The notes below the pieces were generated by a model. It was not told where the DNA came from and made no database searches. It was given only the letters and a program-made list of their open reading frames with translations. From positions 86,643-150,642 of IMG/VR virus record IMGVR_UViG_3300049048_000052: a stretch of 64,000 nt of DNA, one strand, 5' to 3'. Within the stretch, counting starts at the first letter, position 1. Every line of letters starts with the position of its first letter. A program made the position numbers and the translations under genes. The DNA comes from a virus. Positions 1,461-51,301 of the stretch are shown here, one piece after another.

Positions 1461-2147
1461 ATGATGTATATTCCAAGTGATGGAATGTTTGGGGACATAC
1501 TAACATTAATGGACCTGTCAAAGAAGGATCCTAGTAAGGTTATGCCTCTGTTTAAGGTACCGGGGAGTAGACCCTTGGAGACCTTTACTTTAGAGGGTGT
1601 TATCTATAGCACACTACGTGAGATAGCAGCCTATACTGGATTCTCCGAATCTACTATATCAGGTAGAAGGAGCGATGAAGAGTTCAGATATAGAAAGATA
1701 TTTGGGGAGAATCATAAGAACAAATCTGTCTCTCCTGAGCTAATGAGGGCAGGTGGTATGTCTGAGGATCGTATACCCAAAATGTCTCATCAGGGTATTG
1801 CTATAGATGAGATAGTCTGGGCTCTTATGTGTATCAACAGAGTAAACCTAATGGATGGTAGAGGCAGTGTTGCTATTACCCCCGTAGCTATTGAGATACT
1901 TGATAAGTTAGAGGTAATTAAGCCTGCCATAGCTAGTCCTGCCTCTATATTAAATAGTGTAATGAGTAGGAAGGGTAAATTTGTAGAGGCACAAGGTATA
2001 AAGATATACTCTGATTGTCTTAGGGAAGCAGCCAGGTTAGGAATAACTACTGATGCTCTGAACGCAGATGATGCTCCTATAGAGTTCACTGGTACTATGA
2101 TTGCCCCCATGAAGACTATTCTGGAGCTATTATCCCAATGCTATTAG
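1461..2147 (+). CDS. hypothetical protein
   Basis: 228-aa ORF preceded by GGTATATAAG directly before the ATG. Confidence 0.5.
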   Translation: MMYIPSDGMFGDILTLMDLSKKDPSKVMPLFKVPGSRPLETFTLEGVIYSTLREIAAYTGFSESTISGRRSDEEFRYRKIFGENHKNKSVSPELMRAGGMSEDRIPKMSHQGIAIDEIVWALMCINRVNLMDGRGSVAITPVAIEILDKLEVIKPAIASPASILNSVMSRKGKFVEAQGIKIYSDCLREAARLGITTDALNADDAPIEFTGTMIAPMKTILELLSQCY

Positions 2148-2575
2148 AAACTATTAAGTCTGACCTAAATGAGTCTAGGAGATCAGGGGACTCTGCTAAG
2201 CGAGATATCCTAACTGTATTACTATCCCAAGTCGAGGCCAGGATTAAAGATACAGGTCAAGAAGTAGTCGATGCCGATGTTATTAACCTAGTTAAGAAAT
2301 GTATCAAGGAGAGAGAGGAGCTAGCTGGTGCATATGTAACAGCAGGTAGACCCACACTCAATATTGATACAGAGATATCTATACTTAAGGCATATATCCC
2401 TCAGCAAATAAGCCGAGAGGATTTAAAGACCATCATAACTACTGTTAAAGAAGTAAGTGCTAATGCAGATGGCCCCAAGTTAAAGGGTGTGGTCATGAAG
2501 TATCTGAAGCAGAACTATGATGGCACCTATGATCCAAGTATGGCATCTTCTATTATTGATGAAATAAATAAATAA
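2138..2575 (+). CDS. GatB/YqeY domain protein
   Basis: 145-aa protein whose motif spacing (ARIKD, ELAGAYVTAGRP, ILKAYIPQQIS, GPKLKGVVMKYLK) matches the YqeY/GatB C-terminal helical domain family. Confidence 0.55.
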   Translation: MLLETIKSDLNESRRSGDSAKRDILTVLLSQVEARIKDTGQEVVDADVINLVKKCIKEREELAGAYVTAGRPTLNIDTEISILKAYIPQQISREDLKTIITTVKEVSANADGPKLKGVVMKYLKQNYDGTYDPSMASSIIDEINK

Positions 2576-8910: not shown

Positions 8911-9657
8911 ATGAATAAGCCACTATGGTTACACGCTCTCATAGCCCAGATAACTGATACTAAGAAGAGAGCGGAGGGCATCAAGAAGTCCGTATATCAG
9001 AAGTTACAGAAGGCTACTCTCTTCGTAGCTACACTAAAGGAGTACACCCCATTAGTAGAGGGAGGTATACAGTACACATCTGAGGGTACATCAATCGTAC
9101 CTGAATCAGTACCTCTACTATTGGATGAGTTCAATGAGGCTGTCTCCAAACTATTAAATGAGATGGCTACCCAGGATTGGGGCAATACAAAGGCTAAGGC
9201 CGATGTTATTATTGATGATATAGTTATTGTTAAGGATGCACCTGTAACATTCCTAATGGCGTTACAGAGTCAGCTAATTGATTATAGAACTTTGTTTGAT
9301 CATGTACCCACTCTAAGTCCCGTGGACAAGTGGGAATATAATGCAGGTCAAATGGTATGGAGCACACCAGCTACCATTACTAATAAGGAACAAGTAATTA
9401 AGGAGTGGGTACCTATCTTCCAACCTACAGAGCACCACCCAGGTGAGGCCAAGGAAGTATCTAGGACAAAGCTAGAGGGTACATGGGAGAGCCGTAAGTT
9501 TAGTACTGCACTACTCCCTTCCCACAGGAAAGAATTGCTACAGAGGGTTGATAGACTAATTGAGGCGGTAAAGGTGGCACGTGAGGAGGCCAACCGTATT
9601 CAAGTAGAACCCAAGGATGTAGCTACAAGTATCATTGGGTACCTAATGGGTGCCTGA
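8911..9657 (+). CDS. hypothetical protein
   Basis: 248-aa ORF after a 340-nt non-coding region. Confidence 0.5.
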   Translation: MNKPLWLHALIAQITDTKKRAEGIKKSVYQKLQKATLFVATLKEYTPLVEGGIQYTSEGTSIVPESVPLLLDEFNEAVSKLLNEMATQDWGNTKAKADVIIDDIVIVKDAPVTFLMALQSQLIDYRTLFDHVPTLSPVDKWEYNAGQMVWSTPATITNKEQVIKEWVPIFQPTEHHPGEAKEVSRTKLEGTWESRKFSTALLPSHRKELLQRVDRLIEAVKVAREEANRIQVEPKDVATSIIGYLMGA

Positions 9658-9701
9658 TGGTAAACGGCGTAGGCTAAGGTTAAAGGTGTATAGGTAATAG
9701 T

Positions 9702-9758
9702 GTAGGTTCGAATCCTGCCCTTCCCATATATGGGAAGGTAGTCCAACTGGTAGAGACT
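9702..9758 (+). other. tRNA T-arm plus 3'-acceptor module followed 5 nt later by a complementary 5'-acceptor plus D-arm-like segment
   Basis: GTAGG/TTCGAAT/CCTGC then CCTTCCC A, TATAT, then GGGAAGG TA GTCC AACTGGTAGAGAC. Confidence 0.4.
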
Positions 9759-9862
9759 GTCCAATACACTATATAAGACTGAGCATTAAGTTCAGATTAT
9801 CGCCCTAGACTAAGTCTAAGGACAACAGCTCAGGTCGACTGTCTAGGACAACATTGACCCAC

Positions 9863-9964
9863 GTTGGTTCGAATCCAACCCAGGCCGCTTGGGGGCGACC
9901 CTATATGGGTAGGTAGCTGTCACACTTCTACCCCTTTCTTGGCCTGGTAGACTAGAGGTTAGTC
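9863..9964 (+). other. second T-arm plus 3'-acceptor module with a downstream complementary 5'-acceptor plus D-arm segment
   Basis: GTTGG/TTCGAAT/CCAAC CCAGGCC G ... (53 nt) ... GGCCTGG TA GACT AGAGGTTA AGTC. Confidence 0.4.
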
Positions 9965-12041: not shown

Positions 12042-12830
12042 ATGGATCTGGCAGTCAGGATCAAGGAATTCTATGAGTATGCATACCGCACCTTCCTACC
12101 CAGGAGGATGCCAGTCATACTTAGAGTAGATGGTAAGGCATTCCACTCTTATACAAGGGGTATGAATAGACCCTTTGATGAGAGATTGGAAGAAGTAATG
12201 AACCTTGTAGCTATTAAGCTATGTAAGGAAATACAAGGTGCTCAGATAGCCTATGTGCAATCTGATGAGATCAGTATATTAATTCATGGTTATAAGAAGC
12301 TCAATAGTGAGTCATGGTTTGGTAATAATGTACAGAAGATGACCAGTGTTAGTGCTGGTATAGCTAGTGCATGGTTTACCTACCACTCATCTAGGTTAAC
12401 TACTGTATCTGAGGATATAGGTAATACCCAACAGTTTATAGAATCTAAGCTAAAGCCAGCAGTATTTGACTCTAGGGTATTCGTACTCCCTGAATCAGAG
12501 GTATGTAACTACTTCATATGGAGACAGCAGGATGCTACTCGCAATAGTATCTCTATGCTTGCCCAGTCTTTATACTCCCATAAGGAGTTAAATGGGGTTA
12601 CATGTAATCAGATGCAGGAGCTCTGTTTCCAGAAGGGTCATAACTGGAATGATCTACCTATCATTAGAAAGAGGGGTAGATGTATTCGTAAGTTTATTAG
12701 GTATACACCTGTAGCTGGAAGACCTGAGGGTAATACAGTTGCTAGATCCTATTGGGATGTAGACTATGAGACTCCTATCTTTACTGAGAATCGTAACTAT
12801 ATTGAAGATCTATTAAAGACATATGAGTAG
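12042..12830 (+). CDS. Thg1-like protein (tRNA-His guanylyltransferase family, 3'-5' nucleotidyltransferase)
   Basis: N-terminus PVILRVDGKAFHSYTR...AYVQSDEISIL reproduces the Thg1 RVDGxxFH and SDE catalytic signatures with the correct spacing. Confidence 0.7.
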   Translation: MDLAVRIKEFYEYAYRTFLPRRMPVILRVDGKAFHSYTRGMNRPFDERLEEVMNLVAIKLCKEIQGAQIAYVQSDEISILIHGYKKLNSESWFGNNVQKMTSVSAGIASAWFTYHSSRLTTVSEDIGNTQQFIESKLKPAVFDSRVFVLPESEVCNYFIWRQQDATRNSISMLAQSLYSHKELNGVTCNQMQELCFQKGHNWNDLPIIRKRGRCIRKFIRYTPVAGRPEGNTVARSYWDVDYETPIFTENRNYIEDLLKTYE

Positions 12831-13270: not shown

Positions 13271-14622
13271 GCTGTCTCTTAATAAGAGGTATATATGAAT
13301 GAGGATAAAATGTATGAGAAGTTATCTCGTGCTGTACTTTATCTTGACCGTGCGTTTAAGAATCACTACGCTATGCATGGTCAAGAGATGGAGTTGAGTG
13401 TAGCTATAGACTCAATAATAAATAGATTTGAACCTACTATAAATAGATTAGCCCTAAGGAATATAGATGAGTCATAAAGTATATGCCTGTTATGGACTCA
13501 CTAGAGACTGTATCGGTGAGTTTGAATCCATAGAGATAAGTATAGTAGATCCTACCTGTTGGATGAGTACTGAGGATGAAAGGGTACCTAAGTTCTATGG
13601 AACAGGATTACCTGTTACTACCTGGAAAGCCAACAATGGAACTCTAAGGCCTATCCTTACTGATGTGGATTACATAATGATCCATGTTAGTGAAGAAAGT
13701 TTAGGTGACTTTGAGTTAAGAGTAATACCTATAGAAATGTTCCTAGATATAAAGAAGGAATGTAAGGTAAAGAGTGCTAAAGGTGAGGGCGCCATAACGT
13801 TCAAGATGCGTACAGAAACAAACAGCTGATTGATTTAGGAGAGTAGAATGTATTGGAATAATAGGAACTACAAGATCGCAATGGTATTACTTGTGTACGC
13901 TCTAGGCTTTTCCGTAGTAGTAGTACCTCACTTCTTTATGACAGGAACCTTTGACCTAATTAGGTTTGTCAGATACACAATCCTTTATGCCCTTGGCGCA
14001 GTTTTAGGATGGTTATGGGAGAGCTCATGACAGTAACCCTTGTAATAATACTACTAGCCTCTGGAATTCTAGCCCTCTACTCCCTAGAGGCTAGGGCCAC
14101 TGCCATCGACGCTCAGGTCACCTATGATGCTATCGTAGCTAACAAAGAGCCCACGCTTATGCTCAATGAGATATCGGAGCTTACTGGTATGAGCATAAGA
14201 AGGACAGAGAAGGCAGTGGATCAGTTAGTGGAACATGGTTGGTTGAAGAGGAGTATCAATGCTCCATTCCATAAGGAGGACTACCATTACTTCTGTGGCG
14301 ACATTCTTTATTACTTACCTGGGAGGTAAAATGCAAGTTCAAGTATCCCTTTCTCTTCCTTTAATCATACCAATCCTCATAGCTGCCTTCTCTACAGGTA
14401 TCAGTGCTGGTGTGATCATAAGCTGTTGGTTCTTAGATTCTAAATTACCTAAGGGCCCTCTAAGCTGGATATTCTACTCTGGCTTATTTGCAGCAGGCTC
14501 ATTATCAAGCTTACTACTAATCCTTACCAGGTAGTACTATAACAGTAGGGATAAACAACCCTACTGTTATATCCACCAGAGTACCCTTGACATAGAGTTT
14601 AATATTTGATATCAATATGTAT

Positions 14623-17454: not shown

Positions 17455-17525
17455 CTTTTTATATGGTGGTTTAGTTATAGTGGGTTCGATTCCCACACCA
17501 GGCGTTAGTTAATTAGGGATAATGT

Positions 17526-21969: not shown

Positions 21970-22743
21970 TTGGAGAGGGTCCTTAATGGACCCTCTAATA
22001 ATATGAAGATATTAATAGTAAGTGATATACACTTTGAACGACATGACTACCCTAAGACCTTCATAGATAGATTACCTGAGGCTGATGTACTTATAGTAGC
22101 TGGGGATATGATTCCCTTTACTGATTATAATTATCGGAACGTAGTGTACAGCCTATCCAACAAGTATGATGACTTCATACATATAGCAGGTAATCATGAG
22201 TTCTATGGTAATGGGATAAAAGAGGGCACCCTTATAGCTAGAGAGGAAGAACATAAACAATATAGCTATGTTTACCTAGATAACCAGGTAACTACTGTAG
22301 GTGATACAGACCTTATAAGTATTGCTGGCTCTACCACCTGGTTCCCTTGGGTACCTGAGGTAGATACAGAACGCATATACCTTAATGACTACAACTATAT
22401 AAAAGAGTTCAAGAAGGACCCTAAGGTGCCCCATGAGTTAAATCAGAAGGCCATAGAGTTCTGGTGTAACGTAAATGCTGACATATGGGTGATGCACCAT
22501 TTACCCAGTAAGCAATCAGTACACCCTAAGTATGAGGGTGATGCCTTCAACTGCTTCTTCCTATCTGATATGGAGGAAGTAATAAGAGAGAGGCAACCTA
22601 AGCTAGTTATACATGGGCATACACATGATAGCTTTGATTACCATATAGGTGAGACAAGGGTTATCTGTAATCCCTATGGTTATGACACATGGAACCATAA
22701 GCAATTAAATAAGAACTTTAAACATTTAATCGTGGAGATATAA
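21970..22743 (+). CDS. calcineurin-like metallophosphoesterase
   Basis: ILIVSDIHF, VLIVAGDM, IAGNHEFYG and GHTHD reproduce the four metallophosphoesterase metal-binding motifs in order. Confidence 0.7.
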   Translation: MERVLNGPSNNMKILIVSDIHFERHDYPKTFIDRLPEADVLIVAGDMIPFTDYNYRNVVYSLSNKYDDFIHIAGNHEFYGNGIKEGTLIAREEEHKQYSYVYLDNQVTTVGDTDLISIAGSTTWFPWVPEVDTERIYLNDYNYIKEFKKDPKVPHELNQKAIEFWCNVNADIWVMHHLPSKQSVHPKYEGDAFNCFFLSDMEEVIRERQPKLVIHGHTHDSFDYHIGETRVICNPYGYDTWNHKQLNKNFKHLIVEI

Positions 22744-24620: not shown

Positions 24621-25475
24621 AGTAGTAGCAACCCCTAAGGGATTCAAGATAAAGGAGAGATAATGTTAGAAGTACTAAGAATAACCGTAGATACTATTAG
24701 ATTTCTATATAGTCTTAGTGTAGCCGTATTTATATTAAAGATGCTGATCTTCTCAGAAATGAGGAAAGATCCAGATGCAATGCTCAAGTGTCTCCTATGG
24801 CCCTTTACTAAACTGATCAAGAAGAGACGGTTACGTGCAGTTAGCGGCATAGTTACAGTATGTTTCAGTATATTCTTTGTAGGGGCAGCAGTATCAGATA
24901 GCTATAGGTTAGCGGCACTAAGTGAGTCCTTTCTATGGGCAGGTATGATAACAGGCATTATGATGTCCTCTACATTAGATCTTTACTCTGCTGAATATAC
25001 TAAGGAATAGATATCATGCAGATTGTAAAACAAATGGCTTTAGGCCTAATGTTCCTAGGTATAGGGCTAGCTCTAACACGGTTAATCAGACCTCCTCAGT
25101 CTAAAGATAGGGCTGCCTTATCTAAAGCTGATATAGATAGAGTAACTAATAAGGTGGAGGAGATTATCTACCTAGCCCATAGTTCTATACCAGAGGGTAT
25201 GGGTGTGATAGTACTACTCAGTAAGGAAGAACATGAGGCTCTCCCTTGGGATCCCACTGATATCATTAGTACAGCAAAGGCTAAGCTAAGATTCAATGAA
25301 CTTATAGAAGATAAGTACGCAATGATTAAGGTTAGTAGTAACTTAGATAGCGCGCTAGAAACCACTGACTTTGATCCTTATGCAAGAGTCGTACTTGCTG
25401 TGCGTAATAAGGACTAATGCTTACTCTAATAGGTCAGGGCATTGATATACTACCCCCACTAAGGAGGAATAGTAT

Positions 25476-25754
25476 ATGAAACCAGGACCTAAGAAGGGTA
25501 GTAGTCAGAGTAAATCCCATGTTGCCAAGAGGGCCAAGGCTGTAAAAGGTAAGGCCAATGGTATGTTTAAGGATGGAAGACGTTCCTATCGTTCCATAGC
25601 GGGAGCTAGGAATAGCGATGGAAAAGTTGTGCATCACAAGGACGGTGATAGGACCAATAATTCAAGATCTAATCTAAAGGTCCTGAATGATGGTCCTAGT
25701 AGGCCAGGTAGGAAGACAACTAGTAAGCATGAAAGACTTACTAGACGTAAGTAG
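25476..25754 (+). CDS. small basic HNH (HNH_3-type) endonuclease-like protein
   Basis: 92 aa, K/R-rich, with VVHHKDGDRTNNSRSNLKVL (the HH.DG...NN...NL pattern of HNH_3-type homing endonucleases); ends exactly where a tRNA-like gene begins. Confidence 0.5.
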   Translation: MKPGPKKGSSQSKSHVAKRAKAVKGKANGMFKDGRRSYRSIAGARNSDGKVVHHKDGDRTNNSRSNLKVLNDGPSRPGRKTTSKHERLTRRK

Positions 25755-25924
25755 CCAGTGTAGCTTAAAAGGTAAAGCGTACCCCTCTCAGGGTATACCG
25801 AAAGGGTCCATAGGTAATAGGTGTAGTTGCAAGATTCTGTGAGAGTTATAAACTCCGTATTCGGCAGAGTCCCAGACTGCACAACTATACCTATGGATAT
25901 GAGGGTTCGATCCCCTTCACTGGC
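25754..25924 (+). tRNA. tRNA-like gene (anticodon-arm loop CTCTCA, Glu-like) with about 100-nt insertion after the anticodon arm
   Basis: 5' part 25754..25795: acceptor GCCAGTG, D-arm GCTT/AAAAGGTA/AAGC, stem TACCC/GGGTA. 3' part 25901..25924: T-arm GAGGG/TTCGATC/CCCTT, acceptor CACTGGC pairing 7/7. Confidence 0.35.
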
Positions 25925-26012
25925 GTTGACTAAGATAGAACAATGAGACATAAAGAAATGCCCCTCTATGTAAGACACATAAGAGGGGGTCCAATTAACT
26001 TAGGAGTAAATA

Positions 26013-26327
26013 ATGATAAATCCAGTATCAGAGATATTATTAGGGGAATCCAAAGAGGGAGTCCAGTTTATGACACCGATGGCTGCGGCAGCTAAGGATA
26101 TATATGTAAGAGCTTTAAGAGCTGGATTAGATGTAACATTAACCGCAGCTAACCAAGAGGTGAGTATAGATCCTCAGTCTGGACTGTTAGAGGCAAGCTT
26201 GAATCTATGTGAGGTCGAGGGATATAGACCCTCGGTAGCTGAGTATTATAAGTTAGTGGATATCATGACAGGGGCCCTAGCTGCCCTTAAGGAAGTTAAG
26301 AACGAATGGAAAGCTCCTACTAAATAG
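26013..26327 (+). CDS. hypothetical protein
   Basis: 104-aa ORF with GGAGTAAATAATG ribosome-binding site. Confidence 0.45.
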   Translation: MINPVSEILLGESKEGVQFMTPMAAAAKDIYVRALRAGLDVTLTAANQEVSIDPQSGLLEASLNLCEVEGYRPSVAEYYKLVDIMTGALAALKEVKNEWKAPTK

Positions 26328-33787: not shown

Positions 33788-33847
33788 ATCTTAGGGCGTA
33801 AGCCCTTATTCATTCCTCAGTGGCGCAGTGGATAGCGCACCCGCCTT

Positions 33848-34537
33848 TAGGATAGGAGCACTTCTAGGGGAAACCCTTAAAGTGAATGTGGTTAAATTCA
33901 GGGAAGACTAAGTAGATTATGATCAAACTCCCAATGACAGTTAGGACATAGAGGTACTAAGTTGTCTACAGAGTTAATGTCGTTAACTAAGGTTTCATGT
34001 GGAAAACTAGAGATGGCCTTTCTATGGGCTATTTCAACATGTTTGTTATACCCACAGTTAATACAACAAGACCAGTCGAGTTTTGCTGCTACAGCTCTAG
34101 CCCTTGCTCTAACTAAAGCATAGGCTGAGGACCTGTGATGTTTATTGTACATGGCTTCTTCTAAAGTGACATTTAGATTTAGTCCCTTACGATGAGATCC
34201 AAAGCAGGATTTACAGTAGGTTCTGGAGTTACTTATAGGAGTGGTGCATACCAAGCATTTATTCTCGGGTTTCCTCTTGGGGAAATTACGATTATTATGT
34301 GTAGCAGCACAACTCTTACTACAGAACTTAGGGTTAGTTGTTTCCTTATTACAGTTGAGACAATTCATAGTTTATATGTTAATCCTGAGCCAAGCTATTC
34401 GAAAGCCCTATTATATCATGGGTTCGAATAGAAGGTGCAGAGACTTAACAGCCACCACCTAAGGTCATAAGACTATGGTGAAGATAAAGTCCAGACTACA
34501 AACACTCTTGAGTGGCAGCTAAAGCTGTAGTAGGAGG
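33848..34537 (+). mobile_element. group I-like intron in the tRNA anticodon loop (between nt 34 and 35)
   Basis: TTCAGGGAAGACTAAG (33897..33912) and AAGATAAAGTCCAGACTACAA (34481..34501) resemble the group I R and S (P7) elements; terminal G before the 3' exon; about 210 nt of non-ORF sequence. Confidence 0.55.
33898..34368 (-). CDS. HNH homing endonuclease, encoded antisense inside the tRNA intron
   Basis: 156 aa; CINCGYNKHVEIAH...NLVPLCPNCH is a classic HNH motif, plus N-terminal CxxC pairs. Confidence 0.7.
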   Translation of the reverse strand: MNCLNCNKETTNPKFCSKSCAATHNNRNFPKRKPENKCLVCTTPISNSRTYCKSCFGSHRKGLNLNVTLEEAMYNKHHRSSAYALVRARARAVAAKLDWSCCINCGYNKHVEIAHRKAISSFPHETLVNDINSVDNLVPLCPNCHWEFDHNLLSLP

Positions 34538-34595
34538 CTAAGCGGTCGGTCGCAGGTTCGAATCCTGCCTGGGGAGTTTTAGTTAGGAGAAGATC

Positions 34596-37859: not shown

Positions 37860-39884
37860 ATGTTTGAGCAATTAAGATCGGCCGTTAAGGCTCGTTTTGC
37901 TTCCCTCGTTGTAGGGAATGGTGAGAATATGTTTGTCCTGGATATCTCTAGGGATGATCTATGGAACACTTATATAACTGGATATCCAGAGGGCGCTGAA
38001 AGACAAGAGAACAACTGCAACGCCTGTAGATCTTTCATTAAGAATTATGGAGGTCTTGTATGGGTAGACCCCAACACCTATGAGCTCCATAATATCTGGC
38101 AGCTAGAAGGACCCATGGCTGACTATGGCCCAGTTAAGGCTCTGAGAGAATTGGTAGAACTAGCTACTATTCGGGATGCGTTCATTAACGATACCCGTAA
38201 GTTAGGTGTTGACTATAACTTCGCCGCTGAGAGTATGACCAAGTGGACACATCTCTTCTATGAGATGCCTAGGTCATTTCCTACGCAGGTACGTAGTGAA
38301 GTGCCTACCCTGCTTAATGATATTAGGACTGGTGCTAAGGCGTTTGAAAGGGCTCTAATTGAGCTAACTACAGACAGTGTAGAGACAGTCCTAGAACTCA
38401 TAGAGACTAACTCAATCTATCGAGGTGCTGAAAGTAAGGGGGTCCTTCAATCCTTCTTAACCCTAAAGCAGACCTATGATGCCTTACCAGATTACTCTAG
38501 GAAGCAAGCCTTCGCTTGGCTTACCTCTAGGAGGAATCCTGGTATAAGCCGTATCAAGAATACGGCTATCGGTACTCTGCTGGAGGATATATCTGGGGGC
38601 ATGGAGCTAACCCCTGCTGTTCACAGATTTGTGGATAAAATGGATCCCAATAAGTACCAGAGACGTACTGCTGTAGTATCCTCTGGTATGATCAAGCAGG
38701 CAGAGCAGAAAGTCCTAGAGTTAGGTCTGGATACAGCCTTAGCTAGACGACACTCGACCCTGGATGACCTGCGTATTGAGGATGTCCTCTATGTTAATAG
38801 AGATGCTGTCAAGGGAGCCCAGTCTCTCTTTGGTGAGATCATGGGAGAGGTAGAGACTAAGGTTGATCCCAAGAAGTTTGAGGACCTCAAGGATGTTACA
38901 GTAGATACGTTCCTAGAGAGTGTACTACCCGGTGCATCTAAGGTAGAGGTTCTCTTTGAGGGTAGACACTTCTCTAACCTGGTCAGCTTGACTACCGCAG
39001 TTAACCCTGATGCCAAGTATCTCTTCAAATGGGATAACCATCACTCCTGGTGTTACAATGGGGCCCTTGCGGACTCAAGTACTAAGGCTTTGGTTAAGGC
39101 GGCAGGTGGTCAAGTAGAGGGTATACTTCGGTGTTCTCTAGGTTGGGGCAATGGAGATGATCTAGACTTGCATCTTGAGGAACCTAACGGTTTCCATATT
39201 TACTTTGGATCTAAGAAATCTCCAACTGGAGGGGCCCTAGATGTAGATATGAATGCTGGCGGTATTGACAATAGTACCAACCCAGTAGAGAACATTATCT
39301 ACCCCTATGGTAGTAACATGAGGGAAGGGGTGTATAAGGTCTGGGTAAATAACTACTCTAAGAGATCCAACGATGGCTCTGGCTTTGAGGTAGAGATGGA
39401 GTTTGGGGGACGCATCCTGAAGTTTGTCCATCCTAAACCACTGACTAATCACTCTAGTTACACTGTAGCCACCTTCAGCTACAGCAAGACAAAAGGTATC
39501 GAGCTAATCTCAGGTACTCCAGACAGCACAGGCAGCCTAAGTAAGGAGATATGGGGTATCCAAACAGATACCTTCCATCCCGTGCAGGCTGTAACCCTAT
39601 CCCCCAACTATTGGGGAGATAAGCAAATAGGTAACAAACACATGTTCCTATTCATCGAGGCCTGTAAGAATGATGGCATCGTCCGAGGACTCTTTAATGA
39701 GTTCCTACGTCAGGAATTGGCCCCGCATAGGACCGCCTTTGAGTTATTAGGAGCCAAACTTCAGGTAGCCCAGAGTGATGGTCCTCAATTAAGCGGACTT
39801 GGCTTCTCATCCACTCAGGCTGCAGACTTTGTAGTCAGAGTGACCGGGAAGACGGTTCGTATGTTACGTGTGAAGACTTTGTAG
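37860..39884 (+). CDS. large hypothetical protein (674 aa)
   Basis: Longest ORF of the central region; no recognisable catalytic motif. Confidence 0.6.
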   Translation: MFEQLRSAVKARFASLVVGNGENMFVLDISRDDLWNTYITGYPEGAERQENNCNACRSFIKNYGGLVWVDPNTYELHNIWQLEGPMADYGPVKALRELVELATIRDAFINDTRKLGVDYNFAAESMTKWTHLFYEMPRSFPTQVRSEVPTLLNDIRTGAKAFERALIELTTDSVETVLELIETNSIYRGAESKGVLQSFLTLKQTYDALPDYSRKQAFAWLTSRRNPGISRIKNTAIGTLLEDISGGMELTPAVHRFVDKMDPNKYQRRTAVVSSGMIKQAEQKVLELGLDTALARRHSTLDDLRIEDVLYVNRDAVKGAQSLFGEIMGEVETKVDPKKFEDLKDVTVDTFLESVLPGASKVEVLFEGRHFSNLVSLTTAVNPDAKYLFKWDNHHSWCYNGALADSSTKALVKAAGGQVEGILRCSLGWGNGDDLDLHLEEPNGFHIYFGSKKSPTGGALDVDMNAGGIDNSTNPVENIIYPYGSNMREGVYKVWVNNYSKRSNDGSGFEVEMEFGGRILKFVHPKPLTNHSSYTVATFSYSKTKGIELISGTPDSTGSLSKEIWGIQTDTFHPVQAVTLSPNYWGDKQIGNKHMFLFIEACKNDGIVRGLFNEFLRQELAPHRTAFELLGAKLQVAQSDGPQLSGLGFSSTQAADFVVRVTGKTVRMLRVKTL

Positions 39885-42178: not shown

Positions 42179-42733
42179 ATGTTAATAGAGAGGCTCCTAA
42201 TGGAGGGGGCGGATGTATCTATATATTACATAGATAACCTTGATACGGCAATGTTAATGGATGAGTTAACAAAAGCTGTAGAATGGGATACTATGGGTGG
42301 TACTAGAAGGAAGATGGCATGGTTTGGAAGGGGAGAGTATACCTATCGGGATAGACTTCATAAACCTCAGGATATGCCATTGGTCGTTAAGATAGCTAAG
42401 GCACCAGTAGAACGAGTGACTGGCCACACCTACAATGGTTGTCTAGCTAATTGTTATGAGAATGGGAGGATAGGGGTTAACTGGCATTCAGATGATGAGT
42501 CTATACCAGGTTCACCTATAGCCATACTATCTCTAGGTGCAACCCGTACCTTTAGGATGATGCATAAAGTATTAGGTATCAGCAGGGAGTGGAGACTGGC
42601 AGCAGGTACTGTACTTGTCATGTCTGGTCCTACTCAAGAGAACTGGATGCATTGCATTCCTAAAGAGGGAGAAGTTAAAGAGGCTCGTATCAGTCTTACA
42701 TACAGACAAACTAAGTTGACCTCCGTAGATTGA
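42179..42733 (+). CDS. AlkB-like 2OG-Fe(II) dioxygenase (nucleic-acid demethylase family)
   Basis: NWHSDDE (HxD), SLGATRTF, WMHCIP (distal His) and RISLTYRQ (RxSxTxR) match the AlkB signature in order and spacing. Confidence 0.7.
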   Translation: MLIERLLMEGADVSIYYIDNLDTAMLMDELTKAVEWDTMGGTRRKMAWFGRGEYTYRDRLHKPQDMPLVVKIAKAPVERVTGHTYNGCLANCYENGRIGVNWHSDDESIPGSPIAILSLGATRTFRMMHKVLGISREWRLAAGTVLVMSGPTQENWMHCIPKEGEVKEARISLTYRQTKLTSVD

Positions 42734-42775: not shown

Positions 42776-43189
42776 ATGCATAGCAAGTCGAAGGGTAACA
42801 TAGGGCAGTTTTATGCTGCTGCTAAATTGGCCGAGTTAGAGTTCGCCGTATTCACTGAGGAGGGAGATAACTCCAAGGTGGATATAATAGGGGTTAAGGA
42901 TAATATAATACTTAGGTTTCAGGTAAAAGCTGTAACTCCTAAGAATAATACATTAGCTTTAATGCTGAAGAAATCTGGTCCTAATTATAAGTTTAAGTAT
43001 AAAGAGGAGATGTTTGACTACTTTATAGTAGTTGACCTTATTAGCTTTAAAGTATATGCTGTAAGTTCGGAGGTACTAAGAACCCATCAAGATACTTTTA
43101 CTATAAGATTAGTAGCAGCGAAAAACAAGCAGAGTTGTAATACGAATGAGGCAGACGATTACCTCATGGAGAAAGTTTTGGGTCATTAA
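42776..43189 (+). CDS. hypothetical protein (possible PD-(D/E)xK nuclease fold)
   Basis: 137 aa; SKVDIIGVKD...RFQVK spacing resembles a D...(D/E)xK core; weak. Confidence 0.35.
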   Translation: MHSKSKGNIGQFYAAAKLAELEFAVFTEEGDNSKVDIIGVKDNIILRFQVKAVTPKNNTLALMLKKSGPNYKFKYKEEMFDYFIVVDLISFKVYAVSSEVLRTHQDTFTIRLVAAKNKQSCNTNEADDYLMEKVLGH

Positions 43190-43252
43190 CTTAGCGGCTA
43201 AAGTACCTAGCTTTTAACTAGGGAACCGAAGGTTCGAGTCCTTCATGACCCA
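43180..43252 (+). tRNA. tRNA-Lys (UUU)
   Basis: Acceptor GGGTCAT/ATGACCC 7/7, D-arm ACTT/AGCGGCTA/AAGT, anticodon stem-loop CCTAG CTTTTAA CTAGG, T-arm GAAGG/TTCGAGT/CCTTC; its 5' end overlaps the stop of the preceding CDS. Confidence 0.7.
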
Positions 43253-43311
43253 CTGGTTCTATAAAATAGAACTGGTTGAGGGGGAGTGGTGTAATGGTAG
43301 CCACGCAGGTC

Positions 43312-43857
43312 TTAACTCATTGGAGTTAGTTGGTGTATTAGTTTATAAGCGTTCTTAACTAGATCTCTAGAGAGCATCTTACCACCAGATATCAATTTTA
43401 TAATTGGGTTCTTGCGTGAGTGGTCTAACTGAAATCTAGCTTGAGGATATAAGTCCAGGAAGGATGTGGCAGTATCTTTATTAGAGGCAGCTATTTCTAT
43501 CCTATAAGTCTTAACTTTATAGACTTGTACTAAAAGTTGCTTTATCAGATCTATTAAAGTAGGATCCTGGTTGCAGAAGTAAACATGATTTGTTTTATCT
43601 GTATGCCAGCCCTCACATAAATAGGCCGTATGGGCAGCAATGGAAAGAGGTGTTAGGAGTAAATCATCTGTAGGGGAGATATAGTTCTTCCTAGCTAGAA
43701 AGTTATACTCTGAGGCAGATCTCATTGGTATATGGTACTTCCTTAAGTAAGACCTAATAGTCTTATGGTTACAGGCTAGTAACTGACCTATCTGATAGGG
43801 ATTAAGTTCCTGAGTCAGGTATAGATCCTCAAGTACCTCTTTATTAATTAACTTCAT
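43312..43857 (-). CDS. intron-encoded protein, antisense (HTH plus LAGLIDADG-like, putative homing endonuclease)
   Basis: 181 aa inside the second tRNA intron; N-terminal helix-turn-helix-like segment and AYLCEGWHTDK, loosely resembling a single LAGLIDADG motif. Confidence 0.5.
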   Translation of the reverse strand: MKLINKEVLEDLYLTQELNPYQIGQLLACNHKTIRSYLRKYHIPMRSASEYNFLARKNYISPTDDLLLTPLSIAAHTAYLCEGWHTDKTNHVYFCNQDPTLIDLIKQLLVQVYKVKTYRIEIAASNKDTATSFLDLYPQARFQLDHSRKNPIIKLISGGKMLSRDLVKNAYKLIHQLTPMS

Positions 43858-44111
43858 AATCCTGAGCCTTCATGTAGAAATACATGTTGTGAACGAAGCT
43901 ATATGCGGGAAACGCTTAAAGCCTACAACACTATATGTCTACCAAGATATAAGTAACAGTTTGTAGGATGTAACAATAGCCAATCCGCAGGGAAGATACC
44001 TAGGTATCCCCTCAGAGACTAAACGCTTTGCACCTTAACGTAGAGACGAAGGTGATGATATAGTCCAGACTACAACAGCTTACGCTGGCCTATGAAAGTA
44101 GGAGTAGTAAG
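43314..44111 (+). mobile_element. group I-like intron in the tRNA-Leu anticodon loop (between nt 34 and 35)
   Basis: TCAGAGACTAAACGC (44012..44026) resembles R; GATGATATAGTCCAGACTACAACAGC (44054..44079) resembles S; terminal G; near-identical S region to the first intron. Confidence 0.55.
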
Positions 44112-44266
44112 AGGAACCTGTGCCGCAAGGCGTGAGAGTTCGAATCTCTCCTCCCCCATTTACAGTAGTGAGCACACGGTATGATGTAGGGTTCCCCCTA
44201 CTTGTACTAAGGCTAATACCTTTGCTATATTCACTACTGTAAACATATTGATTGTTTCTAATAATT

Positions 44267-45282: not shown

Positions 45283-45630
45283 ATGGAAATGGATATATTT
45301 AGCCCCTCAAGACTCGTCTGTATTCACTATGGAAATAATGCTATAGATGAGATAATGGATGGTAGAGCTGAGGAAGCCCTAGATAAACTAGAGAAGGCTC
45401 GTGAGGATGATATGTTCGATATGGAGCATTATCAATCTATACTGCTCTATGTGGGTGCATGCCTTAAACAAGAGAGCATGGGCCATTATATACAATTCCT
45501 ATTGACTATCTTTGATGAAGATGATATTACTAGTATTAACACCGCAGATTCTAAGGTCAATGGTGTCCTAGCGGAAGCGGCAGCAATCCATAGCGGGGAT
45601 GGAGCAACGGGAGGCTCGATGGTCTCATAA
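45283..45630 (+). CDS. hypothetical protein
   Basis: 115 aa, preceded by a 14-bp-stem hairpin. Confidence 0.4.
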   Translation: MEMDIFSPSRLVCIHYGNNAIDEIMDGRAEEALDKLEKAREDDMFDMEHYQSILLYVGACLKQESMGHYIQFLLTIFDEDDITSINTADSKVNGVLAEAAAIHSGDGATGGSMVS

Positions 45631-45666
45631 GCCATACATCGCTGAGTTCAATTCTCAGCCCCGACA
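45593..45666 (+). tRNA. tRNA-like (anticodon CAU) with imperfect acceptor stem
   Basis: D-arm GAGC/AACGGGAG/GCTC, anticodon stem-loop ATGGT CTCATAA GCCAT, T-arm CTGAG/TTCAATT/CTCAG. The acceptor pairs only 5/7 and the loop overlaps the TAA stop of CDS 45283..45630. Confidence 0.35.
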
Positions 45667-45898
45667 TTGTCAGTTTACCTGTCCTGACGTTGTGAAAAGA
45701 TAGGTGTAGGTCATAGGCCTAACTAGCAAGAATTGAGTTCGAATCTCAACAGGTCCATTTCGAGGGCCTGACTTGGTAATCGATTGTTAGCATGAGGAAC
45801 TATGACTGAAGGTGTGTACAACCAAAGTACAGAACAACAAGTGCAACCAATAACATTGTACCCTTCTCAAGGGTAAGTTCTATAGTAGTGTAATCTAC

Positions 45899-46663
45899 TC
45901 AGGCGTTTAGTATACTAAACGCCTGCTCTTTTTTACGCATACAGTAGGGACCACCTAAGTTATATAACCTAAATATAAAAGTCTTAAGGATTTTACCTTG
46001 AAAGGAGAAACCGTACTGATTATTCCAGTTGGGATTCTTACTTTGCAAGTCCCTCATATGTACATTAAGGGATATATCTAGTAGTTTGTTGAGCCTAGAG
46101 GCTAGAGTATACATAAAAGACTTTGAGCATCCATAGGCTGTAAGTCTACGGGAGGACCAACACCCGTCAGAGTCTAGATATCCTCTAATGAAATCTAACT
46201 CGTAGACGCTGTCTATAAGAGGCTCAGGGTAAATCATAGTCTTGGACTTATTACTTTCTAACTTTAGGATAGTAGTTAGATCTCTATGTAGACTAGTGGA
46301 ACATATAGCGAGCTGAAGACAGTTAGAAGCTATATTCCTTATTTTATAATCGGTATTGAGGTTAGATTGTATCTGTTCTAGAATATCCCTGTCCGAGGTA
46401 GTAAATACTATCTGACATCCATTTCTATGTAAGTGACCATCCCCATACAATACACCTAACATCCAAGCTTTAAAGGTGTCCATAGGGAACAATTTATAGT
46501 TCTTAAGCTTAGATAATGGCTTATAGGACATTGCCCCGGAGCTCTGCAGGACTTTGTATATACAATAAGAGGATAGCCCTAATTTAGAACTAATATTTGT
46601 AACAGACTGACCCTCCTTATACATAGTTATAATAGGCGTTGGGTTAATATGAGTAGATTTCAT
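45899..46663 (-). CDS. LAGLIDADG homing endonuclease (two-motif type)
   Basis: WMLGVLYGDGHL and FIRGYLDSDGCW are the two LAGLIDADG motifs; N-terminal HTH-like segment. Confidence 0.7.
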   Translation of the reverse strand: MKSTHINPTPIITMYKEGQSVTNISSKLGLSSYCIYKVLQSSGAMSYKPLSKLKNYKLFPMDTFKAWMLGVLYGDGHLHRNGCQIVFTTSDRDILEQIQSNLNTDYKIRNIASNCLQLAICSTSLHRDLTTILKLESNKSKTMIYPEPLIDSVYELDFIRGYLDSDGCWSSRRLTAYGCSKSFMYTLASRLNKLLDISLNVHMRDLQSKNPNWNNQYGFSFQGKILKTFIFRLYNLGGPYCMRKKEQAFSILNA

Positions 46664-48105: not shown

Positions 48106-48419
48106 TTTATATGTGCCTATCTTATTCAGTCGGCATATGTAACTATATAAATATCTCCATCAAACTGATAGAGTCATAGAGCCTATATGGTCTCTGACTA
48201 AGAGCTGATACGGATGGAATATTGGGGGATAGGTACTCCCGATGAGGGCCCCAGCTCTCAACACAAATATCAGCTCTCCTAGCAACTAACTGGCTTATGC
48301 TAACCCTTAATCAGGTAATCATATATTGGTTCAACTCCAATAGTTGCTTTTCCCAGTCGCATAACTTGCGTTCCCAACTGGGATTCTTAGCAATGGTTGG
48401 CTTAGTCCAATCATTTCTT

Positions 48420-48492
48420 GAGGCTGTCGTCTAAAATGGTAGGACTCCCCAAGTTAGTGGGGCAGATGTAGGTTCAAATCCTACCGGCTTCA
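48420..48492 (+). tRNA. tRNA with non-canonical anticodon loop
   Basis: Acceptor GAGGCTG/CGGCTTC, D-arm GTCT/AAAATGGTA/GGAC, stem CCCCA/TGGGG enclosing a 6-nt loop AGTTAG (or 4-bp stem plus 8-nt loop), T-arm GTAGG/TTCAAAT/CCTAC. Confidence 0.45.
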
Positions 48493-48497
48493 TTTAT

Positions 48498-48569
48498 GCA
48501 GTGTTGGTCTAATGGATAAGACGTCTCCAAACTAAGGAGTTAATGTAGGTTCGATTCCTGCTAACTGCG
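48498..48569 (+). tRNA. tRNA (anticodon unresolved)
   Basis: D-arm GTCT/AATGGATA/AGAC, T-arm GTAGG/TTCGATT/CCTGC, acceptor 5/7 paired. Confidence 0.45.
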
Positions 48570-48955
48570 TTTGTGATTTATACAACTTAATATAGTGACC
48601 ATAATCACCCCACATTACACAAAGCATATCCTCTTAATATTCAGTATTAACTACTGTAGGTATTAGAGGATATTATGAGTAAGTGGGAATGTCCCCAACA
48701 ATGCCCCTATCAGGCAGATGATTCTAAGTGGCCCCATATCCGACTCTTCCTCTTAACTGTGGTTGCGGTCGGCATCCTCTGGGGAACAAAGATATATAAG
48801 CAGCAGGACATAGAACCAGCTGATTGGGGTATAGGCTTAACGGCCCTAGTCCTAGCATCTAATCACCCTGAGACCCTACACAAGATAACTACTAAGGCAG
48901 CTAATAAGTTATTGGACTTAAACCCTGCGGAGGAAGATGAAAGTGAGGGAAGATA

Positions 48956-49950: not shown

Positions 49951-50196
49951 GGAGGAAAAGGATGATGCGGTTGTGTTGAGTATGGGGGATGTCACCTTTG
50001 TTCTCTTTAAGAATGCTAATGGAGAGGTAGTTGCCCTTCCAGTAGATGAGGATGATGAAGATGACATGCCCTTTGGGATTCAGATGCCCCAATGAACCTT
50101 GTAACGAATGGACCGACTGTGACTATAAGGATAGATTAATATATCTACCTGAGAAGCATGAGGACCCTAATGATTGGCAGGATGCCAGTTAAGCCT

Positions 50197-50276
50197 CCCC
50201 GCTACGTCCTAAGGTAGGACACCTGCCTTCTAAGCAGGCGCCTTGAGCATAACAGGTTCGATTCCTGTAGCGGGGG
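50197..50276 (+). tRNA. tRNA (anticodon UCU) with 13-nt variable arm
   Basis: Acceptor CCCCGCT/AGCGGGG 7/7, D-arm GTCC/TAAGGTA/GGAC, anticodon stem-loop CCTGC CTTCTAA GCAGG, variable arm CGCCTTGAGCATA, T-arm ACAGG/TTCGATT/CCTGT. Confidence 0.55.
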
Positions 50277-51301
50277 TTAATACATTTGGAGAAGAGTATG
50301 TCGGAAGTCTGGTTGGCTATAGGTATTACTATGTGGTTATGTGTAGGTATAGGAGCTATGTTCCTTAACCTCTTTAAGATTAGTATAAAAGAGTTTATGG
50401 GAGTGAAGACTGATGCGGTCCATCTTACGTTAATGTCTTTATCTATCATTGCTCTGGGCCCAATAGGTCTAGCCATTGTTATTTGGGGGTAATATGAAGG
50501 ATCCAAAACAGAATCCTGGTCAGGCCGCTGCTGCGGTCGCTATTGTTGTAGGCTTGATTGCAGGGGGCGCAGTTATAAGGGACGAGATCGTTAGGAACGT
50601 CAATACTCAGGAGCAAAAGCATGACCGATAAGAAAGAAGAGAAGGATACTGGTAAAGGTTCAAGTAATAAACCGATAACTAAGGAAAGCGATAAACCAAA
50701 CGGCGGATCACAATATATCGGCGGTATACCTGGCCTGGGGGATAAATGAAGTTAGTGTCTATTTGTCTAGGGTTCCTAGCAGTAGTTACGGGACTGTGTT
50801 TTATATCTATTCAATCCAACCTACCCTGCGATTCGTGGGTGATGGGGATGGCTATGACTTACCTATTATCATTGGGAGGTATATCCTTCCTCTTATACAC
50901 TGTTTGATTAATGAAGGGGCCTCAATTAAGGGGCCCATAAAAGGAGAAAGATGATTGGAACAATGTGGAGAAATAGAGTCAGTGGTATACCCCATTGGGT
51001 GGTAGGTCATATGATTATAAATCCTATAAGATTAGATACCCACACTAATACTCACGGTACGTGGATCATATTAGAACATAGGGCAAGTGGACCTAAGGAA
51101 CTATATGTTTCTGAGCATGAGCTATCTGAGCTCTATAATATGGAAGGCAATATATGATAATGGAATTCTGGATGCAGCCTGTTATACAGGAGTTTGCTAC
51201 TGTAATATTGCTTTCTATCGTGGCCCCTATATTGATATCATTGCTATTCTATTGGTTGTATAAGGATTAATTGATTGGTTACTTAGTAAGGAATCAATAT
51301 A

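Follow-up and report, generated by a model that had tools for sequence, protein, structure and literature searches.

A tRNA-like phage gene with an expanded, hairpin-bearing variable region beside a truncated HNH endonuclease gene

The tRNA-like gene and its core fold

The stretch of DNA analysed here (the window, 64,000 nucleotides) belongs to a phage-like contig of ~252 kb (JGI 3300071358). At the locus under study, an open reading frame for an endonuclease of HNH_3 type runs directly into a tRNA-like gene, and a structured insertion of ~100 nt lies in the variable region of the latter. The elements of the locus, all on the + strand, are the following, with their basis in brackets.

25461..25467, +, Shine-Dalgarno sequence AAGGAGG, 8 nt 5' of the ATG of the HNH gene (read from the sequence)
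25476..25754, +, HNH_3 endonuclease ORF, 92 aa, basic, free-standing and 3'-truncated (Pfam, PHROG, homologues)
25754..25925, +, tRNA-like gene, 172 nt, complete cloverleaf with expanded variable region (Rfam, MFE folding)
25754..25760 with 25918..25924, +, acceptor stem GCCAGTG/CACTGGC, 7/7 paired (pair probabilities 0.94-1.0)
25763..25778, +, D-arm GCTT-AAAAGGTA-AAGC with A14, G18, G19 and A21 (pair probabilities 0.92-0.96)
25780..25795, +, anticodon arm TACCC-CTCTCA-GGGTA (pair probabilities 0.95-0.97)
25785..25790, +, anticodon loop CTCTCA, 6 nt (alignment, fold)
25798..25805, +, mini-hairpin CC-GAAA-GG that opens the variable region (fold)
25806..25898, +, irregular long hairpin, 93 nt and 37 bp (fold, pair list)
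25901..25917, +, T-arm GAGGG-TTCGATC-CCCTT (pair probabilities 0.64-0.77)
25925, +, discriminator G (Rfam alignment, fold)
25926..25927, +, TT right after the discriminator, CCA not being encoded (flank comparison)
25961..25988, +, G+C-rich hairpin CCCCTCTATGT...ACATAAGAGGGG with no T-run, not called a terminator (fold)

The Rfam tRNA model RF00005 matches 25754..25925 over model positions 1-71 with 38.7 bits, against a gathering score of 29 (E 1.3e-4 for the whole window), and its alignment places ~100 extra nt between model positions 44 and 45, namely in the variable region; the preliminary description of this DNA, which had reported ~100 nt inserted after the anticodon arm, was right on this point. 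When the 172-nt RNA is folded without constraints, its MFE structure (-71.2 kcal/mol, z -5.5) consists of a canonical cloverleaf plus two hairpins. All core pairs (22/22) are standard, including the acceptor stem that had been described as matching at seven positions out of seven, and the core carries U8, A14, G18, G19, A21, G53, T54, Psi55, C56, A58 and C61, together with the A15-U48 pair. The elements by which a cloverleaf is recognised, that is a 7-bp acceptor, a D-arm with A14, G18G19 and A21 and a T-arm with GTTCRA and C61, are therefore all in place.

Two features depart from the norm. The anticodon loop, CUCUCA in both alignment and fold, has 6 nt, as the preliminary description had it, instead of 7, for nucleotide 38 is missing while U33 and A37 can still be assigned; and the variable region measures 105 nt, as against 4-5 nt in class I and ~10-25 nt in class II tRNAs. 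ARAGORN in its default setting (no intron mode) leaves the gene at 25754..25925 unreported; once the insertion is deleted in silico, the same program calls a tRNA with a 6-nt loop at nearly all choices of boundary. Since 12.3 kb around the locus are 100% identical in an independent Logan assembly (SRR35214979), the tRNA-like gene is no assembly error: its architecture is odd, but the gene is real.

From which tRNA does it derive? The loop CU-CUC-A resembles the Glu(CUC)-type loop CUCUCAC minus nucleotide 38, and the discriminator G73 is compatible with Glu, Asp or Ser identity. The segment ATATGAGGGTTCGA..CCCTTC shows a weak likeness (E 0.1 or worse) to the tRNA-Asp of Vequintavirinae phages, one confined to the variable region and T-arm segment, the remainder being unaligned. 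The start of the insertion, ATACCGAAAGGGTCCA, in turn is similar over 10 nt to GACCCGAAAGGGTTCCA, which belongs to the variable arm of tRNA-Ser in E. coli (sequence confirmed); this may reflect either descent from a class II tRNA or convergence on a generic GAAA hairpin closed by C-G.

The gene belongs to a genome in which tRNA genes are frequent and often unusual. ARAGORN makes 14 tRNA/tmRNA calls in the window, and two tRNA genes (33813..34577 and 43280..44158) are interrupted by group I introns, with Rfam Intron_gpI matches at 33837..34513 and 43845..44086. The tRNA gene at 48419 has a 6-nt anticodon loop, that at 48497 lacks U33, and tRNA-Arg at 50196 has a variable region of ~14 nt; such abnormal loops and enlarged variable region indicate that non-canonical tRNA-like products recur in this genome. 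An encoded CCA is absent from 16/16 tRNA genes of the window, all of which have a 3' flank that begins with T. Downstream of the tRNA-like gene comes the hairpin at 25961..25988, and then the next ORF, 26013..26327; in the 10 kb flanking the window on each side, there are no further RNA-family matches.

The insertion in the variable region

The anticodon stem and the T stem are separated by 105 nt (25796..25900), and the insertion, which is devoid of any ORF, lies between positions 44 and 48, where class II tRNAs have their extra arm and where added length is tolerated. On the + strand it folds with -42.3 kcal/mol, against -22.1 +/- 3.2 for shuffled sequences (z -6.27), whereas the - strand reaches -29.9 kcal/mol (z -2.55); this asymmetry argues for a structure that forms in RNA of the tRNA strand, rather than for a DNA palindrome. 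In the same direction, 5/37 pairs of the long hairpin are G.U against 0 of the opposite kind, a difference that is suggestive, if statistically not strong. The retention of the cloverleaf in the unconstrained fold further indicates that the insertion folds autonomously and leaves the core undisturbed. Among sliding 105-nt segments of both strands, whose MFE values average -22.5 kcal/mol (sd 6.0), the insertion ranks ~15th, and it is the sole single long hairpin of non-coding + strand sequence among them; inverted-repeat and MFE scans found no other similar long hairpin in the non-coding + strand DNA of the window. A comparable hairpin of the - strand, unrelated in sequence, lies at 14010..14125 within an ORF of the + strand.

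We considered several known kinds of element for this insertion. The Rfam model of group I introns, RF00028, does not match 25600..26050 up to E 10, while it gives 54.1 and 66.8 bits on the two group I introns elsewhere in the window. The bacterial tRNA group I introns known so far lie in the anticodon loop (PMC13011429; bioRxiv 10.1101/2020.01.27.920355), and no bacterial or phage tRNA intron is known at the place found here, in agreement with the preliminary description, which had called the site non-canonical. The insertion follows a complete anticodon arm and has neither the anticodon-loop location nor the U.G pair in P1 of a group I site, and a group I intron was rejected on account of the missing Rfam core match, the site outside the anticodon loop and a length of only ~100 nt. 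The alternative that ARAGORN offers, a tRNA-Gly(CCC) with an 85-nt intron at 31/32, was discarded because 2/5 pairs of its anticodon stem are mismatched; inspection by eye for a second GGGTA-like strand near the T-arm yielded only GGATA, which would leave a variable loop of 1 nt. An archaeal-type tRNA intron was rejected for want of a bulge-helix-bulge motif: the base of the hairpin is a continuous helix of 11 bp, and the nearby bulges are only of 1 nt and 2 nt, 3 bp apart. A MITE or other repeated hairpin element was dismissed as well, there being no second copy in the window and no flanking duplication; a fragment of the group I introns of the window or of another tRNA is equally discounted, since only chance matches of 9-12-mers were found. 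No known ribozyme, riboswitch, SRP, tmRNA or YrlA family of Rfam matches the locus up to E 10.

The preliminary description had also read a part of the insertion as a degenerate copy of a T-arm module at 9690..9718, and had suggested that such modules are duplicated or mobile. The two regions do have the 11-mer ATAGGTAATAG in common; three other 11-12-mers of the tRNA-like gene match unrelated places of the window, and the gapped local alignment scores 29 with 9660..9720 versus 30 with an unrelated locus at ~7890, so that the match is at chance level. With only the 1.76 kb of tRNA-like genes as search space, 3/1000 shuffles reach 29, but this narrowing of the search was chosen post hoc. There is no T-arm within the insertion (no GTTCRA motif and no pairing). 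The partner at 9690 belongs to a circularly permuted tRNA-like RNA, 9670..9790, which aligns along the whole of Rfam YrlA (RF02553) as the sole YrlA-like match, although its 26.8 bits (local E 9e-4) fall short of the gathering score of 69. The structural contexts differ: at 9690 the 11-mer is spread over an internal loop, a stem of 4 bp and a junction, and in the insertion it forms part of a continuous helix. Scans with the hairpin arms gave no other copy either. The idea of a T-arm copy is thus not supported, and we treat the similarity in ATAGGTAATAG as probable chance, with a small residual doubt.

Relatives were sought more widely. Exact-pattern scans with the 5' half, the 3' half and the hairpin arms across IMG/VR, GTDB genomes and JGI metagenomes retrieved no relative, their sole hit being a chance match in a coding region without tRNA; neither 185,579 genomes nor IMG/VR contain the arm pattern GTCCATAGGTA-N58-88-TACCTATGGAT. 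Likewise, no bacterial or phage tRNA with a variable-region insertion of such size was found in the literature searched. To judge from these collections, the tRNA-like gene is known from one genome only.

The adjoining HNH gene and the phage

The 92-aa ORF matches Pfam HNH_3 (PF13392) with 28.8 bits (gathering cut-off 24.8) and nine PHROG HNH families, and weakly the core of I-HmuI (1u3e, E 0.75). Its TAG stop codon lies at 25752-25754, the final G25754 being position 1 of the tRNA, so that the gene does abut the tRNA-like gene as had been claimed; the insertion site is 45 bp away from it. Only three homologues (P0098-P0100) emerged among 5.8 billion proteins, with 59-62% identity by BLASTP, or 60-64% over the MAFFT alignment, in which residues H53, H54, N62, N66 and H85 are invariant. 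These proteins have 117-122 aa versus the 92 of the window ORF: they cover the latter entirely and then extend for a further 25-30 basic residues, a C-terminal tail that is absent here. The homology stops no more than one or two codons from where the tRNA begins. Since its homologues extend beyond its end, the HNH gene of the window is truncated, by ~25-30 codons.

That the HNH gene and the interrupted tRNA are connected, as the preliminary description implied, finds little backing in the homologues: they lie in unrelated phage contexts, have nothing else in common with the window and have no tRNA genes in their loci. They also occupy different positions among otherwise syntenic genes and, judged by these loci, the HNH gene is a free-standing mobile (homing) endonuclease gene. 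Its adjacency to the tRNA-like gene is probably ordinary and incidental, because endonucleases often touch tRNA-type genes in this window and do so in T4, too, in the case of segB. Among the several homing-endonuclease genes of the window, a PDDEXK_5 ORF (42776..43189) overlaps tRNA-Lys (43180), a LAGLIDADG ORF on the - strand (45899..46663) overlaps the end of the tmRNA-like gene and an HNH_2 ORF lies antisense within a tRNA intron. A functional tie to the HNH gene is not supported.

Searches of the phage DNA by blastn and megablast against 50,697 phage records returned nothing similar, and its best protein link is a 674-aa ORF (37860..39884) with 42% identity to rV5/Felix-O1-like myoviruses. 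The 133-aa ORF upstream of the locus has no relative in IMG/VR, and the DprA-like gene matches only itself among 5.8 billion proteins. The window also encodes a Thg1-like protein and a metallophosphoesterase, the best relatives of which are 40-43% identical and have no interrupted tRNA in their loci; an RNA ligase gene (PF09414) sits just upstream of the window.

Possible origins and comparison with known systems

The explanation that we tentatively prefer, at somewhat less than even confidence, is a non-spliced tRNA-derived RNA which has an autonomous domain of ~100 nt as a giant variable arm and probably does not decode. Transcription of the HNH gene would probably read through into the tRNA-like gene, for the genes are tightly packed on the + strand and there is no convincing promoter or terminator between the two. 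In the folded transcript, the tRNA core would have its normal L shape and the extra domain would stick out from it. RNase P would then cut 5' of G25754, hence inside the HNH stop codon, leaving an HNH mRNA without stop codon, a possible brake on the endonuclease, while a 3' endonuclease would cut after G25925; a CCA-less gene with a flank starting with T, like those of the other tRNAs in the window, fits the same 3' maturation. The arm would be retained in the mature RNA. Owing to its 6-nt anticodon loop the product is most likely no ordinary decoder, and would more likely be a mimic or decoy for tRNA-binding enzymes or a tRNA-shaped processing signal; as a model, a decoy for tRNA-targeting defence enzymes, or such a signal, is plausible. 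The HNH gene, in itself unrelated, would have settled next to the tRNA gene, its 3' tail being lost at that place.

An equally simple explanation, which we hold to be possible if rather doubtful, is that the locus is a relic: a tRNA gene of Glu/Asp type would have lost nucleotide 38 and gained filler DNA by recombination or break repair near the endonuclease gene, its RNA being functionless. A decaying gene, too, would be expected to show an anticodon loop of 6 nt and an insertion that is unique, no other copy having turned up anywhere searched; the HNH ORF breaks off precisely where the tRNA begins, as at a rearrangement junction; other tRNA genes of the genome look defective; and conservation of the gene was not found in any collection. 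Against decay, all stem pairs and invariant tertiary nucleotides are intact beyond the two lesions, and both lesions fall in places that spare the L-shaped core, each of these points being in part a matter of ascertainment since detection required a cloverleaf. Moreover, the presumed filler is a hairpin of 37 bp with z -6.3 and a strand bias typical of selection at the RNA level, and the 3' flank is the same as in working tRNA genes. The remaining alternatives are rarer. Excision of the arm by the RNase III of the host, giving a tRNA in two pieces that the acceptor stem and the stub of the arm keep joined, or one repaired by the phage, seems improbable to us. The size and shape of the insertion are like those of rRNA intervening sequences (review PMC8708148). 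The ~22 nearly continuous bp at the base of the arm would be long enough for the enzyme, and the repair might be effected by enzymes of the phage, which has genes for an RNA ligase, a metallophosphoesterase and a Thg1-like protein. However, ligases of the PF09414 family are suited to nicks in duplexes and not to loops, the 6-nt anticodon loop would persist after removal, and no fragmented or protein-spliced tRNA of bacteria or phages was found in the literature searched.

Collaborative homing has, in our estimate, even less in its favour: the HNH enzyme would cut insertion-free alleles in competing phages, the insertion splitting its own site, being copied along during repair and tolerated in the variable region. 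Precedents for this case are the pairing of the free-standing F-CphI with an intron of psbA and that of MobE with an intron of nrdB (PMC2790892; PMC6083498). The HNH gene lies 45 bp from the insertion, which is within co-conversion range, its catalytic residues are intact and the insertion contains no ORF; yet the three closest homologues (~60%) are not beside tRNA genes and vary in position, the basic C-terminal tail is lost and no insertion-free allele is known. A new small self-splicing or self-cleaving RNA lodged in the variable loop, finally, is very unlikely indeed. It would agree with a structured, strand-specific domain bearing a GNRA tetraloop and with a genome rich in group I introns of tRNA genes, but no Rfam ribozyme or intron family matches up to E 10, the smallest group I introns are about twice as long as these ~100 nt, and the domain is essentially one hairpin, without a multi-helix core or a U.G pair at a plausible 5' splice site.

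What would follow differs among these explanations. There is a slim chance that the insertion is an intervening RNA domain of a novel type, which the tRNA would either retain as a giant arm with a function or lose to protein enzymes (RNase III plus the phage ligase, phosphoesterase and Thg1-like enzyme); its loss would yield a two-piece or re-ligated tRNA. If so, this would be the first tRNA in the bacterial world known to be interrupted elsewhere than in the anticodon loop, and also the first interruption independent of self-splicing, and removal of the arm by proteins would widen the range of modes by which tRNA genes are interrupted in bacteria and phages. Phage tRNAs are now viewed as weapons against host enzymes that cut tRNA (PMC10264068, PMC11464382, PMC11555353, PMC13096335), and a tRNA-shaped RNA with an odd loop and a huge arm could be a decoy, a processing signal or the scaffold of a second RNA. 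Were the gene a relic, it would still indicate the variable region as a place where a tRNA gene can absorb 100 nt and retain its fold. In either case, standard tRNA finders miss such genes, as exemplified by ARAGORN without intron mode.

Among known systems, class II tRNAs (bacterial Leu, Ser, Tyr and Sec) likewise have an extra stem-loop between the anticodon arm and the T-arm of a canonical cloverleaf, and tRNA-Ser has the discriminator G73 of the phage gene. Their variable region, however, consists of ~10-25 nt in one hairpin, about one-fifth the size of the phage arm with its 105 nt and two hairpins, and the phage gene differs from them also in its D-arm of class I type (4 bp stem, 8-nt loop) and in its 6-nt anticodon loop. 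The intervening sequences of 23S/16S rRNA that are excised by RNase III are similar in forming a hairpin of ~100 nt at a tolerant, exposed point, but they sit in rRNA whereas the insertion sits in a tRNA, for which no case of an intervening sequence excised in this way was found in the literature searched. Group I introns, too, are found within tRNA genes of a genome that abounds in homing endonucleases; those of the window lie in the anticodon loop, have 690-800 nt and score 54-67 bits, whereas the insertion lies in the variable region, has ~100 nt and gives no match. With collaborative homing (F-CphI, MobE) the locus shares an ORF-less insertion in the neighbouring gene, and with T4 segB, which ends 5 nt before tRNA-Arg, the direct abutment of endonuclease and tRNA genes; it departs from both in that the HNH homologues are not associated with tRNA, the HNH copy is truncated and the insertion is no recognisable intron. 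YrlA and similar bacterial Y RNAs join a tRNA-like module to a long helical one, as is the case here, but they are circularly permuted, with a loop-closed acceptor, a long stem formed by the RNA ends and no anticodon arm; Rfam YrlA RF02553 does not match 25754..25925, and neither the window nor its flanks showed a Ro/Rsr gene.

Lastly, the species 1 RNA of T4 (rnaC, 139 nt) is a stable phage RNA derived from a tRNA that has a T-arm, paired ends and long hairpins, and it is encoded in a tRNA cluster near the homing-endonuclease gene segB, its role being still unknown. It thereby sets a precedent for a stable tRNA-derived phage RNA beside a homing-endonuclease gene. The two RNAs have no sequence similarity, and T4 rnaC has lost the D and anticodon arms, falling below the Rfam tRNA threshold (best hit tRNA-Sec, 17.5 bits, E 0.92), whereas the phage gene described here retains the full cloverleaf. 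T4 species 1 RNA is nonetheless its closest functional counterpart.

Endonuclease genes in the vicinity of tRNA genes

The HNH_3 endonuclease ORF of 92 aa (25476..25754, + strand), which is 3'-truncated and abuts the tRNA-like gene at 25754..25925, has full-length relatives of 117-122 aa at three contig loci:

L017 6001..6354, full-length relative
L018 3210..3578, full-length relative
L019 703..1071, full-length relative

These loci belong to large-phage contigs that are otherwise unrelated, and the position of the relatives varies among genes for penicillin-binding-protein-like, SH3_3 and Asp/Glu-racemase-like proteins; L017 also carries genes for T4-type RNA ligase 1 and PNKP. Direct contact between an endonuclease gene and a tRNA gene occurs a second time in the window, where a PD-(D/E)XK ORF overlaps the first 10 nt of tRNA-Lys(UUU). 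Moreover, each of the two group I introns interrupting tRNA genes (33813..34577 and 43280..44158) contains one ORF antisense to the tRNA:

42776..43189, PD-(D/E)XK endonuclease ORF (Pfam PDDEXK_5), abutting tRNA-Lys(UUU) 43180..43253
33898..34368, opposite strand to the tRNA, HNH_2 ORF within the intron 33813..34577
43312..43857, opposite strand to the tRNA, ORF with no Pfam match within the intron 43280..44158

Unusual features of the tRNA genes and genes for RNA-related proteins

The anticodon loop is non-canonical in three of the 16 tRNA genes of the window, namely the tRNA-like gene at 25754..25925 and two tRNA genes next to each other at 48419..48570 that have good Rfam scores, yet abnormal loops. 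The tRNA-like gene is also not alone in its enlarged variable region, since tRNA-Arg(UCU) presents a second one in this phage; its length of ~14 nt is uncommon in Arg tRNAs.

48419..48493, tRNA gene, Rfam 42.6 bits, 6-nt anticodon loop AGUUAG, ARAGORN '???'
48497..48570, tRNA gene, Rfam 37.1 bits, 7-nt anticodon loop AAACUAA without U33, ARAGORN Ser(ACT)
50196..50277, tRNA-Arg(UCU), 82 nt

None of the 16 genes encodes CCA, and all are directly followed by T, mostly TT (for example at 17455/17456, 25925/25926 and 50277/50278), a combination that fits a common 3'-processing signal and reliance on a CCA-adding enzyme. The following set of protein genes is suggestive of tRNA repair:

2138..2575, YqeY-like protein
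12042..12830, Thg1-like 3'-5' nucleotidyltransferase
22003..22743, metallophosphoesterase
42179..42733, AlkB-like 2OG-Fe(II) oxygenase
L024 6819..7847, RNA ligase (PF09414), upstream, just beyond the window

Other candidate structured RNAs

A long hairpin of ~95 nt, unrelated in sequence to the tRNA-like gene at 25754..25925, is present on the minus strand (-47.7 kcal/mol, z -3.8; z -0.7 for the plus strand), and could be either an antisense RNA or a coincidence. Elsewhere, a tmRNA-like gene, for which ARAGORN gives the tag peptide ATNNIVPFSRVSSIVV, is overlapped at its 3' end by an antisense endonuclease ORF.

14010..14125, - strand, hairpin within the + strand ORF 14009..14329
45668..45984, tmRNA-like gene directly 3' of tRNA-Met 45591..45667
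45899..46663, - strand, LAGLIDADG_3 endonuclease ORF
9670..9790, YrlA-like RNA

The last of these is a circularly permuted tRNA-like RNA with pairing flanks. Its T-arm is followed by the two acceptor strands, first the 3' one (CCTTCCC) and then the 5' one (GGGAAGG), with the loop ATATAT between them, and by a D-arm. It is immediately preceded by a DUF7873 gene (8911..9657), and a second, isolated T-arm (GTTGGTTCGAATCCAAC) lies downstream at 9862..9879. Neither the window nor its flanks showed a Ro/Rsr gene. In comparison with known RNA families, the tmRNA-like gene reaches 45 bits with the Rfam model of permuted tmRNA, for which the threshold is 47, and 43 bits with cyano_tmRNA, for which it is 70, and the RNA at 9670..9790 aligns with the full Rfam model of YrlA (Y RNA-like) at 26.8 bits (local E 9e-4), below the gathering score of 69.
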